A stretch of 6,017 nt of DNA from Promethearchaeota archaeon (GTDB lineage: Archaea > Asgardarchaeota > Odinarchaeia > Odinarchaeales > JBHLKK01). The notes beneath the pieces are model-generated. The model worked only from the letters and a program-made list of their open reading frames with translations, was not told the DNA's origin and ran no database searches. The stretch is taken from NCBI GenBank assembly GCA_048939465.1, contig JBHLPL010000115.1:1-6017 (forward strand), given 5' to 3'. Position numbers and translations under genes: made by a program. Positions 2,657-6,017 of this stretch are shown here, one piece after another (position 1 is the first letter of the stretch; every line of letters begins with the position of its first letter).

Positions 2657-2714
2657 TAGAAATAAGATGTATATGTAGAGAAGAAGTAGTTTTTCCTTGG
2701 GAGTGAGAGCTGAG

Positions 2715-3911
2715 ATGTATTTAATAGGTGAAGCTTTAATCGGCAAGGGAGACGAAGTTGCTCACGTAGATTTGATAATCGGAGACAAAGAAGGTCCAGT
2801 TGGACAAGCTTTCGCTAATAGCCTGGCCCAGCTCTCAGTAGGACACACGCCTCTATTGGCAGTAATCAGACCGAATCTTCCCTCAAAGCCCATGACACTG
2901 GTAATACCTAAGGTTACCGTGAAAAATCTGAATCAAGCCTCAAAGATATTTGGACCGGCGCAATCGGCAGTCGCTAAGGCCATAGCAGACGCAGTCGAGG
3001 AAGAGATCATACCAAAGAACAAGATTGATGAGTGGGTGATCATATGCAGTGTATTCATTCATCCCAATGCTCAAGACTACCGGAAGATATATCACTACAA
3101 TTACGGCGCAACAAAACTCGCTCTGAAGCGTGCAATGATAGGCTATCCGTCCATAGATAAGATACTGTACGACAAAGACAGAGCCACACACCCGATTATG
3201 GGATTCAGAGTGCCAAGGTTATGGAGACCACCATATCTTCAAATAGCTCTCGACGTCCCGTCACTTAAGAAAACAACGGAAATTATTAAGCAAGTACCCC
3301 ATAGCGACAGAATCCTGCTTGAAGCAGGCACGCCTTTAGTTAAAAGATATGGCGTTGATGTTCTCAAAAAACTGAGAGAAGTCGCGAAAGATGTGTTTAT
3401 AACTTGCGATCTAAAGACGCTTGACGTCGGAAAGGTCGAAGTTGACATGGCTTACGAAGCAACATCAGATGCGGTAGTTGCCTCAGGACTAGCTGCAAAG
3501 GAAACCCTTGACAGTTTCATTCATGAGGCACAAAGGCTTGGGATCTATGCGATAGTAGACATGATGAACGTCGAGAATCCCGTTGAGAAGCTCACCAGCC
3601 TTAAGGAGAAACCGGATGTCGTGATTTTGCACCGAGCTATAGACGCAGAAGCTTCGGAAAAGCCTCGCTGGGACTTCATCAAAGAAATCAAAGCGCTTTA
3701 CAAGAAGAAAAAGGTCCTATTAGCTGTTGCTGGCGGCGTGGTTCCTGAAACAGCAAGTTTGGCTTTGAAGAGTGGTGCGGACCTATTAATTGTAGGAAGG
3801 TATATCACACAATCTCTTGATCCAGAGAGAGCAGTCAGAGAGTTCCTAAAAGTCTTTGAAGAGATGAAATACTGGAGTGACATCGACCTGTTCAGAGTTC
3901 ACGTAGAATAA
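2715..3911 (+). CDS. fae-hps: Bifunctional formaldehyde-activating enzyme / 3-hexulose-6-phosphate synthase (Fae-Hps), about 398 aa
   Basis: N-terminal Fae domain ([53 protein letters not shown]) fused to a C-terminal Hps domain ([43 protein letters not shown]). ATG 2715 (MYLIGEA...) matches the N-terminus of known Fae proteins better than TTG 2697. Confidence 0.96.
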
Positions 3912-3935: not shown

Positions 3936-4039
3936 GGGGAATATATCAAACAGCATATTCTTATAGTGAAAAGACCTCAGGTGTTAGTGCCTGATTTCAC
4001 ATAATCAATAATCCGAGGAATGATGGTTCCGAAAACAAG

Positions 4040-4055
4040 TAGATTTATTTATCTA
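4040..4055 (+). promoter_or_regulatory. Candidate TATA (TTTATTTA) of the p25/p62-like unit, framed by TAGAT-N6-ATCTA
   Basis: AT-rich box about 40 nt upstream of TTG 4091, preceded by A-rich GAAAACAAG. The inverted 5-bp arms are visible. Confidence 0.4.
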
Positions 4056-4090
4056 TTTGCGTTGAATAGCTTTTCCGGAGTGTTTGGATA

Positions 4091-4630
4091 TTGTGTCCTG
4101 TTTTGAAACATAGAGGTGTAGAACCGCAGATTCATGAGAGCGTATACGTAGATGAACTTGCAAGAATAATAGGTGACGTGAGAATAGGTAAGCACTCGTA
4201 TATTGGCCCAGGCGCAACAATAAGAGGCGATCTGGGAAGGGTGACCATAGGAAACTACGTAGTCATCCAAGACAATGCTATAGTCTATCCGCCAGAGGTC
4301 TTTCTTGACGGCAGCCTAAGCCATGAAAGTATAATAATCGGAAACTATGTCTTAATTGGAAAAGGGGCGGTGATTCAGGGGACCTATATTGGAGATTATT
4401 GCTTTGTGGGAAACAATGCTGTGGTAGAACGTGAGTCACAACTTAATCGAGGAGACGTTATTCTGCCTGGTTCAGTAGTCCCAAATAAGGCCATAGTTCC
4501 ACCAGAATCCGTCATGGTGGGTAATCCAGCCAATTTGCTAAGGAAGTTGAGTCACGGAGAACAGGAAAGACACGGGGAATTTATTGAAGCGTATATTCGA
4601 TTTGCAGAGACCTTTGAGAAAACTAAATAG
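4091..4630 (+). CDS. Left-handed beta-helix protein of the gamma-carbonic anhydrase superfamily lacking Zn ligands; dynactin p25 (DCTN5)-like, 179 aa
   Basis: Hexapeptide repeats, gamma-CA-type PQIHES..IIGDV.IG, RGD, IQD, GNPA and a C-terminal helix. The three His ligand positions read Y66, K91 and Q96. RGDL-x18-PP and the downstream turns match p25 spacing. TTG start with GGAG 10 nt upstream. The LbH fold is high confidence and the p25 relationship moderate. Confidence 0.8.
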   Translation: MCPVLKHRGVEPQIHESVYVDELARIIGDVRIGKHSYIGPGATIRGDLGRVTIGNYVVIQDNAIVYPPEVFLDGSLSHESIIIGNYVLIGKGAVIQGTYIGDYCFVGNNAVVERESQLNRGDVILPGSVVPNKAIVPPESVMVGNPANLLRKLSHGEQERHGEFIEAYIRFAETFEKTK

Positions 4631-4640
4631 GTGGGAACTA

Positions 4641-5759
4641 TTGCCCGTAGAATACATTTGCTCTCGGTGTGGAGAATTCAAATCTGGATTCCACAGCTTT
4701 TTCTGCTTGCCCTGCCAGGAAGTTGTTTGTGAGAAATGTGCGCATAAAGTACCCATAAGCTACAAATGCTACCGATGCGGTTGGACGACGGATGTCCAGA
4801 CTGCCAGAGAGTACTTTACGGAATGTCCAAACTGTTTCAAATGTCCCGTCTGCAACAGCGACCTACAGATGGAGACTGGAGAGAAATACTTCCTCCGCTG
4901 TCCGTTTTGCGGATGGGATTCCAAAACGACTAGCCTTAGAATAGAGGGGTCGTCGGAAGAAGAAGTCAGAGGGCGGGCCAGAAAGGAGTTACATCAAGAA
5001 CGCCTGTTCGAGGCAGTCAAGCTTTATTGTGATAAGTGCGGTGAAAGCTTAGTTCATCCTAGGCAAGATATATCTACCTTGATTGCAAATGTCTTTCCAC
5101 GATTTGTTTTTTACACAGTAGCCATCAGACAAGGACAGCGAACAGAAATACCGTACACCGTTAGGAATCCCAGACCAGAAGGATGTGAAATACGGTTTGA
5201 TTGGTACACTGACACACCCTGTGAGATTGAGCCATATACCAAGGGAGTTGACTTTGATTTTCACTCTCCCTACATAAACACCCCCAAGAAGGGTGAATTG
5301 ATAATCAACGCAAAAGAGAGAGGCGAGATGTATTTGATGGCGGATTTGTCTTACAAGTTCGATGAGATATACTTCGGCATAGGCAGAACCAAGGTTCGGG
5401 TAGGACCGATTTTTGTGTGCCCCAATATAGAGGTGAGACGTGAGGTACAATCTCCCATAAAGCGGGACGGGATGAACACAGTTAAGGTCATCATTGCAAA
5501 TAAATCAGATCAAACAGTCACTCAGGCAATAATATCAGATATGATTCTGGAAGGCGTGGAGGACATGAAGCGCAAATTCTGGGAAGTCAGGAGTTTGAAG
5601 CCGGATGATGAGAGAGCTTTTGAATATGCGTTTACACCGGCAGAGGATGCTAAGTACCTTAGATTTGATGGATTGAGATCCAAAGTAAGATTCAAGAGAT
5701 TTGCACCCCAAAAATTCTTTGATTTTGTATCCAAACTTCTTACAGTGGATATGGACTAG
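4641..5759 (+). CDS. Dynactin p62 (DCTN4)-like zinc-binding protein with an additional C-terminal Ig-like domain, about 372 aa
   Basis: Eight CxxC pairs (C7/10, 22/25, 30/33, 43/46, 62/65, 68/71, 87/90, 130/133), including FFCxxC, CxNCFxCPxC, YxLxCxFCxWxS and LxCxKCxxxLxxP, in the order and spacing of p62. These are followed by a beta-sandwich (..TVRNP..GE..VGP) and a second beta-rich domain. Start placed at TTG 4641 (SD AGGTGG at 4629-4634) instead of 4584. Confidence 0.82.
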   Translation: MPVEYICSRCGEFKSGFHSFFCLPCQEVVCEKCAHKVPISYKCYRCGWTTDVQTAREYFTECPNCFKCPVCNSDLQMETGEKYFLRCPFCGWDSKTTSLRIEGSSEEEVRGRARKELHQERLFEAVKLYCDKCGESLVHPRQDISTLIANVFPRFVFYTVAIRQGQRTEIPYTVRNPRPEGCEIRFDWYTDTPCEIEPYTKGVDFDFHSPYINTPKKGELIINAKERGEMYLMADLSYKFDEIYFGIGRTKVRVGPIFVCPNIEVRREVQSPIKRDGMNTVKVIIANKSDQTVTQAIISDMILEGVEDMKRKFWEVRSLKPDDERAFEYAFTPAEDAKYLRFDGLRSKVRFKRFAPQKFFDFVSKLLTVDMD

Positions 5760-5789: not shown

Positions 5790-6017
5790 ATGAGTGAACC
5801 CGGAGCTGTTATCTTCGACCTCGATGGGACTCTGGTGTGGTTTAAGATAGATTATATGAGTGCAAGAAAGGAGGCTATCGAACGGCTCAGAGAACATAAC
5901 ATAGATGCTAGATTCCTGTCAACTACTGAGCCTATCTTCACAACCTTAGGGAGAGCATTTGATTATCTCAGGAAACAAGGAGCAAGAAAAGAGGAGCTTG
6001 ATAGAATAAGAGAGGCA
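5790..6017 (+). CDS. HAD-superfamily hydrolase (phosphoglycolate phosphatase-like), 5' part only
   Basis: ATG 5790 after GAGGA. It translates as MSEPGAVIFDLDGTLVWFKIDY..., containing HAD motif I (hhhDxDGT). The frame is open to the window end. Confidence 0.88.
   Translation, partial: MSEPGAVIFDLDGTLVWFKIDYMSARKEAIERLREHNIDARFLSTTEPIFTTLGRAFDYLRKQGARKEELDRIREA

Follow-up and report, generated by a model that had tools for sequence, protein, structure and literature searches.

CA_D (PDB 6sc4) is a zinc-binding homotrimeric enzyme with the gamma-carbonic anhydrase (gamma-CA) fold, and its zinc ligands, His64, His89 and His94, are contributed by two subunits of the trimer (Vogler et al., 2020; PMC7199487). 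In other systems the same fold is reused structurally within a larger assembly, as in the gamma-CA-like (CAL) subunits of mitochondrial complex I in plants and protists and in CcmM of beta-carboxysomes. The CAL subunits of complex I are not known to carry His ligands. Dead scaffolds of the gamma-CA fold are already known as a kind, and p25, p27 and complex-I subunits belong to it. Of these, p25 (DCTN5; chains in PDB 6ZNL and 7Z8F) is a non-catalytic gamma-CA-like beta-helix followed by a C-terminal helix, and it is devoid of the His triad. Within dynactin it is chiefly p62 (DCTN4) that holds p25, through an interface of 2746 Å2, in which the beta-helix sits on the saddle of p62 and the C-terminal helix on its beta-sandwich, and a loop extending from p25 forms an adaptor site (PMC8047447). 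Here, we describe a gene pair in a stretch of 6,017 bases (the window) that makes up the entire contig C57 of an Asgard genome (1.96 Mb, 91% complete). Its beta-helix gene at 4091-4630 on the forward strand encodes a gamma-CA-fold protein without the metal-binding His, directly upstream of a gene for a dynactin p62-like protein (4641-5759, +), and we regard the beta-helix protein as probably, though by no means securely, p25-like, non-catalytic and the partner of an archaeal p62.

The beta-helix gene (P0001) is an intact open reading frame (ORF) of 179 amino acids (aa), running from a TTG start at 4091 to a TAA stop at 4628-4630; TTG 4103, the start called in the orthologue of locus L006, is a possible alternative. 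The best match of the protein by both sequence and structure is CA_D. In a gap-free alignment with this enzyme (172 residues, E 3e-29), Tyr66 (TAT, 4286-4288), Lys91 (AAA, 4361-4363) and Gln96 (CAG, 4376-4378) fall on His64, His89 and His94, the first, second and third metal ligand, respectively, and the 25/5 spacing of the ligands is identical in the two proteins. CA_D thus differs by its three His in place of Tyr, Lys and Gln, and the archaeal protein further differs in being without Asn58 and in travelling with the p62-like gene. The original prediction, made from the letters of the window, had named an intact ORF and these same three replacements, and had also stated that R45, D47, Q60 and D61 are kept and that V58 stands for Asn; codons, translation and the 6sc4 alignment agree with it on every one of these points.

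For comparison, 151 gamma-CA-like relatives were collected by likeness to the archaeal family. The H/H/H combination at the triad columns is found in 135 of these 151 and in none of the 14 orthologues. At the first-ligand column, His is present in 98% of the gamma-CAs and Tyr in 10 of the 14 orthologues; the second-ligand column of the orthologues holds Lys in 12 sequences, Arg in one and Tyr in one, and the third holds Gln in 13 of 14. Position 58 is Asn in 67% of the gamma-CAs and Ile, Val or Ala in the archaeal family. Read as triads, the 14-sequence alignment (A4), which spans three families of the GTDB, contains YKQ ten times and ARQ, HKQ, IKQ and IYR once each, with one His at most. A search with the archaeal-family profile returned 11 close orthologues (266-331 bits), after which scores fell to at most 129 bits, the range of the gamma-CAs, and 2 further orthologues come from a separate family (f33). 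The loss of the metal ligands is therefore real, complete and conserved, and since the triad is missing in 14 of 14 orthologues, the copy in the window is not a one-off degenerate. K91 and Q96 are conserved replacements. A possible explanation for their conservation is that a lysine occupies the former metal site at a trimer interface that has been retained.

The protein is maintained by purifying selection. Between the beta-helix gene and its 81%-identical L006 orthologue, the nonsynonymous and synonymous divergences are 0.086 (dN) and 1.42 (dS), giving a dN/dS of about 0.06, and selection is equally strong on the methenyl-tetrahydromethanopterin cyclohydrolase gene mch in the same comparison (dN 0.089, dS 1.48). 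Because the orthologues are without the triad, the dN/dS is this low and a second gamma-CA with a canonical H/H/H triad is encoded elsewhere in the same genome (G000:C20; L002:1411-1932), the reading of a functional but non-catalytic protein stands. The non-catalytic scaffold that had been proposed from the window is supported by the triad loss in orthologues together with purifying selection, and the protein is presumably catalytically inactive.

The downstream neighbour, to which the original prediction had not linked the gene, gives a concrete meaning to the term scaffold, as it is a full-length DCTN4-like protein. It is a Cys-rich protein of 372 aa with a Zn-ribbon and a beta-sandwich, and it has about nine homologues, all of them in Asgard archaea. 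With a profile of these homologues (A1), the top two PDB sequences were dynactin subunit 4 (p62), with E of 1e-4 and 5e-4; eight Cys and the motifs NCF.CP.C and Y.L.C..C.W.S are in register between A1 and DCTN4, and the Pfam family Dynactin_p62 is touched by four of eight members. The AlphaFold2 (AF2) model of the p62-like protein has a predicted local distance difference test score (pLDDT) of 84.9. The top four Foldseek matches of this model are the DCTN4 chains 9b7j_K, 7z8f_Y, 8pr4_Y and 6znl_Y (E 1e-12 to 8e-10, template modelling (TM) score 0.50-0.55 over the full length), below which follows Ig-domain noise with TM of about 0.23. According to the model, the neighbour matches DCTN4 alone over its full length, and it is some 90 residues shorter (372 vs 460-467 aa).

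The two genes are tightly linked. Among 400 Asgard genomes, the beta-helix profile exceeds 270 bits in exactly eight, and these are the same eight that hold a full-length p62-like gene; in all eight, the beta-helix gene lies directly upstream of the p62-like gene on the same strand, 11-40 nucleotides (nt) apart. In a ninth Asgard genome, a p62-like fragment lies at the end of a contig. The order from beta-helix gene to p62-like gene is kept in L003, L005, L006, L007, L016 and L017. In the window, a Shine-Dalgarno-like AGGTGG of the p62-like gene (4629-4634, +) abuts and overlaps the stop codon of the beta-helix gene, and a junction of stop, GGTG, about 7 nt and TTG is conserved in the window and the Odin-type loci L003, L005, L006 and L007. 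The ORF lister had placed the start of the p62-like gene at TTG 4584, overlapping the beta-helix gene by 47 nt. However, all p62-like homologues begin at the equivalent of TTG 4641 (M-P-V-E-Y), and the conserved junction likewise indicates that 4641, not 4584, is the start; annotation pipelines may over-extend the gene to 4584. Structure prediction of a complex between the beta-helix and p62-like families gave a median of 0.31, where the mark lies at 0.32, and a value of 0.21 for one control.

In larger Asgard genomes (families f21, f22 and f23; G139, G141, G143, G163, G281-G283 and others; L020, L021), ORFs of about 700-825 aa were observed, the N-terminal part of which resembles the Zn-ribbon region (positions 5-140) in the p62-like profile, with E of 1e-4 to 2e-8. 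These may be longer, more distant p62-type proteins or mere Cys-rich look-alikes.

The likeness of the beta-helix protein to p25 extends beyond the absence of catalysis. Residues 41-161 align without a gap to p25 45-165 (121 residues), and, as in the archaeal family, H/H/H is not found in any of 150 representative DCTN5-like proteins, a set obtained by searching with the eukaryotic sequence P0012. A protruding loop (Pro67-Ser80; 4289-4330, +) is an insertion of eight residues relative to ordinary gamma-CAs. The segment 66-84 has 18 residues in 14 of 14 orthologues and in 99 of the 150 DCTN5-like proteins, as against 10-11 in most gamma-CAs; 3 of the 151 gamma-CAs, the 6sc4-like ones, also have 18. 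The Pro that follows the former first-ligand position, P67, occurs throughout the archaeal family (100%) and in 97% of DCTN5, as against 3% of gamma-CAs, and L48, A49 and G74 are likewise common to the archaeal family and DCTN5 and rare in gamma-CAs. The putative partner of the archaeal protein is, like that of p25, a p62-type protein. The conservation specific to the archaeal family relative to gamma-CAs clusters in the loop (P67, E69, F71, D73, G74, L76, H78), at Y99, Q117 and G121, and where the C-terminal helix begins (G156, E157, E159, R160, H161, E166), and loop and C-terminal helix are surfaces that p25 uses for protein contacts. By assignment with DSSP on the AF2 model (pLDDT 92.5), this alpha-helix spans residues 157-175 (4559-4615, +) and packs on the left-handed beta-helix. 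Residues 74 and 76 of p25, which contact adaptors and are positively charged and often aromatic, align with V70 and L72 of the archaeal protein. In contrast to p25, the archaeal protein keeps gamma-CA-type N-terminal turns, with gamma-CA-type residues at 8 positions that DCTN5 has lost, and it has no p27 partner gene. A position-by-position comparison revealed no position common to DCTN5 and gamma-CAs against the archaeal family, and such a pattern is what an intermediate between gamma-CA and p25 would show. The CAL and CcmM proteins differ from the archaeal protein in belonging to other assemblies and other lineages and in not being paired with a p62-like protein, and some CcmM and complex-I subunits keep their ligands.

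A phylogeny of 109 sequences (14 archaeal, 40 DCTN5-like and 55 gamma-CAs) was computed under the LG+C20+F+G4 model with posterior mean site frequencies (PMSF). The split between the 14 archaeal plus 40 DCTN5-like sequences and the 55 gamma-CAs received a support of 100/98, and it persisted without the loop and triad columns with 93 in the Shimodaira-Hasegawa-like approximate likelihood ratio test (SH-aLRT). When either the archaeal family or DCTN5 was taken alone, each attached at the same node, beside P0085 and the loop-bearing archaeal gamma-CAs P0065-67. The DCTN5 clan is supported with 100/100, and the archaeal family stands outside it on a short stem (0.2-0.8). As it shares its branch of the gamma-CA tree with p25, the archaeal family is on present evidence the best candidate for an archaeal p25 counterpart, and it may share an exclusive common ancestor with p25.

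Two outlying relatives were noticed. P0085, a Promethearchaeota protein (L008:995-1519 / L009:972-1496), is the nearest gamma-CA to the archaeal plus DCTN5 group in all trees; it has an H/T/Q triad and shares the motif VIQG.Y.GD with the beta-helix protein. No p62-like gene neighbours it at its locus, where two thioredoxin genes come before it and a peptidase gene is also present. The second relative (L023:4600-5151, G309:C275) belongs to another Asgard family and is a protein of 183 aa that scores 175 bits with the archaeal-family profile, with an H/K/Q triad and a slightly longer loop. Just upstream of it lies an ORF for a 178-aa Lys/Glu-rich coiled-coil protein (3982-4518).

These data suggest the following mechanism. 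The beta-helix protein would descend from the archaeal gamma-CA subfamily with a protruding beta10-beta11 loop, as seen in PDB 6sc4, and after losing all three metal ligands it would have been kept as a rigid, metal-free beta-helix building block. It would be co-translated with the p62-like protein, which it most likely binds, and the binding would resemble that of p25 and p62, with a side of the beta-helix facing the Zn-ribbon saddle and the C-terminal helix lying against the beta-sandwich. What is shown for the pair is genetic linkage, with adjacency in eight of eight genomes and a coupled junction. The pair could form a small scaffold, which may dock on an actin-family filament, as the genome has one eukaryote-like actin gene (445 bits; G000:C38).

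Several results weigh against a p25-like identity. The overall sequence and fold of the beta-helix protein are nearer to gamma-CAs than to p25. Its best structural match is 6sc4, with a TM of 0.93-0.94, a root-mean-square deviation (rmsd) of 1.3 Å and a Z of 30.5 (Foldseek, VIA-align), and the top 50 Foldseek matches contain only gamma-CAs or carbonic anhydrase subunits of complex I, the gamma-CA and CAL chains of complex I being among the top matches, without p25 or p27. In VIA-align, gamma-CAs reach Z of 26-30, compared with 23.5-25.4 for dynactin chains, and the best dynactin chain (Z 25.4, rmsd 1.5 Å) does no better than Cam, the Z of which equals that of the dynactin chains. The fold ranking had been expected to favour p25, and in both structure searches gamma-CAs ranked first instead. 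Among the best 120 matches of the archaeal-family profile there is no eukaryotic DCTN5, and 11 positions, mostly N-terminal, are common to the archaeal family and gamma-CAs and not to DCTN5. In favour of p25, the Pfam family DCTN5 (PF21711) gives the protein 58.7 bits, and 57.5 when the genome was searched, both above its cut-off of 40, yet it is weakly discriminating, for it also gives 46.8 bits to the His-retaining loop-bearing archaeal gamma-CA P0067 and 105 to the eukaryotic P0012, and it has matches in 4 of 14 control genomes. As ordinary gamma-CAs are matched as well, this family was rejected as decisive proof of p25 identity. No p27-like second beta-helix gene was found in the 91%-complete genome, which has two gamma-CA-like beta-helix genes, the other being the canonical HHH one.

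The phylogeny is open to similar objections. Under the approximately unbiased (AU) test, a topology uniting the archaeal family and P0065-67 without DCTN5 is retained (delta log-likelihood 2.5, p 0.46), so that an affinity to gamma-CAs only was not excluded. The stem of DCTN5 is long (1.6), and the gamma-CA nearest to it, P0085, also has a long branch and has lost part of its His triad; an attraction of long branches, or one by convergence, is possible. Moreover, the gamma-CAs of the tree were picked by likeness to the archaeal family, and they include neither p27 nor mitochondrial gamma-CAs. Finally, there is no p62-like gene beside the G309 relative, and none was found in its 80%-complete genome.

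An alternative that takes up these points is that a gamma-CA paralogue degenerated independently, took on a role as structural or regulatory subunit and has no exclusive ancestry in common with p25, its likeness to p25 being due to convergence and a tree artefact. In such a case the protein might still be a homotrimer, and might still be a partner of the p62-like protein. Besides the AU test, which is compatible with a grouping among loop-bearing gamma-CAs, and the G309 relative without its p62-like neighbour, this explanation is favoured by the fact that loop-bearing archaeal gamma-CAs come closest to the protein in profile, sequence and structure alike. Loss of His is repeated in the superfamily, with HHN, HHQ, KHE and HTQ patterns in our sample. 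In addition, K91 and Q96 are far more conserved in the archaeal family than in DCTN5, which hints at another use of the old active-site face, for example as a metal-free trimer interface. On the other hand, the neighbour is a full-length match to p62, the very holder of p25, and two separate recruitments of this rare pair of folds would be a coincidence. Convergence also has to account for the 100/98 split with DCTN5, obtained under a site-heterogeneous model and stable without loop and triad columns, and for the attachment of the archaeal family and DCTN5 at the same node in separate analyses. We consider independent degeneration a serious explanation, albeit a rather unlikely one.

The protein could instead be an enzyme still, or a binder of small molecules or metal through other residues, such as an acyltransferase, a thioesterase or a non-His carbonic anhydrase, with a metabolic link to its neighbours. 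Its hexapeptide-repeat fold (Pfam Hexapep, 72 bits) would fit, R45, D47 and mostly D61 are kept, Y66, K91 and Q96 are conserved and not random, and a gene for a haloacid dehalogenase (HAD)-family hydrolase, of which the window holds the start (5790-6017, +), follows the pair in Odin-type loci. However, no enzyme model of NCBIfam comes near its cut-off: gamma-CA reaches 87.4 bits against 250, PaaY 85.6 against 319.6 and CaiE 64.2 against 305, and the acyltransferase models (hexapeptide-repeat, LpxA/CysE/Mac type) are far below theirs, the best being NeuD with 52 against 160.8 bits. R45, G46 and D47 are equally conserved in the non-enzymatic DCTN5 (89%, 81% and 90%), and hence they mark the fold, not catalysis. 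All three ligands and Asn58 are gone, the HAD gene is missing from the f33 loci (L016, L017) and so stands outside the conserved core, and the eukaryotic homologue of the conserved neighbour is purely structural, all of which makes a remaining enzymatic role improbable.

Acquisition of both genes from a eukaryote, DCTN5 and DCTN4 having passed into an Odin-type ancestor so that the pair would be silent on the origin of dynactin, might explain why full-length copies occur in three small families only among the 400 Asgard genomes, and it accords with a eukaryotic pair that is universal and ancient, but it is the least credible explanation and very improbable, given the gamma-CA-type residues at 8 N-terminal positions lost from DCTN5, the short stem outside a fully supported DCTN5 clan, the absence of any position at which DCTN5 and gamma-CAs agree against the archaeal family, as befits an intermediate more than a copy derived from a eukaryote, a p62-like protein some 90 residues short of DCTN4, and a coupled pair of prokaryotic style with TTG start and Shine-Dalgarno site.

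The p25-like partnership with p62 can be carried one step further. The pair may be the direct archaeal forerunner of the p25-p62 part of dynactin, a pre-eukaryotic module that capped or decorated the pointed end of Asgard actin filaments and later gained Arp11, p27 and the dynein machinery, and the beta-helix protein would then be a preserved intermediate on the way from gamma-CA to p25; this we put forward only tentatively. Dynactin is regarded as a machine found in eukaryotes alone. If the proposal holds, loop-bearing archaeal gamma-CAs would provide the enzyme ancestor of p25, a living intermediate would exist that combines a gamma-CA-type N-terminus with the loop and ligand loss of p25, and the role of p25 and p62 before dynein could be asked in a tractable system of two genes.

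Previous reports contain little on this subject. Supplementary file 6 of Eme et al. (2023) has one line, 'putative dynactin p62 family' (2 members, Odin), which is absent from the text of that paper, and nothing was found in the literature on the beta-helix partner. A search on dynactin with Asgard, Odinarchaeota or archaea yielded no main-text claim, Asgard papers mentioning dynactin only in passing, and within the searchable literature the survey of dynactin evolution is silent on both prokaryotes and carbonic anhydrases. We found no literature report of dynein or the rest of dynactin in this organism, and Arp1, Arp11, p150, p50 and dynein were not searched for in its genome.

The orthologues are publicly named 'gamma carbonic anhydrase family protein' or 'phenylacetic acid degradation protein', the kind of miscalling that the original prediction had expected, especially next to C1 genes. 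The names carbonic anhydrase and PaaY would be wrong in metabolic reconstructions of Asgard archaea, especially where the gene stands beside C1 genes. As a functional context, however, the C1 genes did not hold up. Mch (1514-2473, -) and a Fae-Hps fusion (2697-3911, +) are beside the pair only in the window and L006. The upstream neighbours vary among Mch/Fae-Hps, four Roadblock genes, tRNA-Thr-ED and an MtrH-like gene, and a functional link to Mch and Fae-Hps was rejected because the upstream neighbours differ in L003, L005, L007, L016 and L017; the C1 genes next to the pair in the window are incidental. In one Odin genome, the pair is immediately preceded by the four Roadblock/LC7-family genes (L003:7586-9351, L004:206-1426). 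The window, L005, L006 and L007 do not have these genes there, and they were not retained as a conserved feature.

The closest named relatives of the genome are Odinarchaeia, and one 79%-identical homologue was labelled Hodarchaeota by its submitter. At the other end of the window are a nitroreductase gene (245-751, -) and a gene for a predicted coiled-coil protein of 197 aa without family match (868-1461, -). The position of the latter, between nitroreductase and Mch, is taken in L006 by a 192-aa gene without Pfam matches (6218-6796). In the 179-nt spacer after Fae-Hps, an AT-rich TTTATTTATCTATTT occurs at 4044-4058, 33-47 nt upstream of TTG 4091. As judged from its letters and location, TTTATTTATCTATTT is a candidate archaeal TATA box that could give the beta-helix/p62-like pair its own promoter, and GGAG at 4077-4080 could be the Shine-Dalgarno site of the beta-helix gene.

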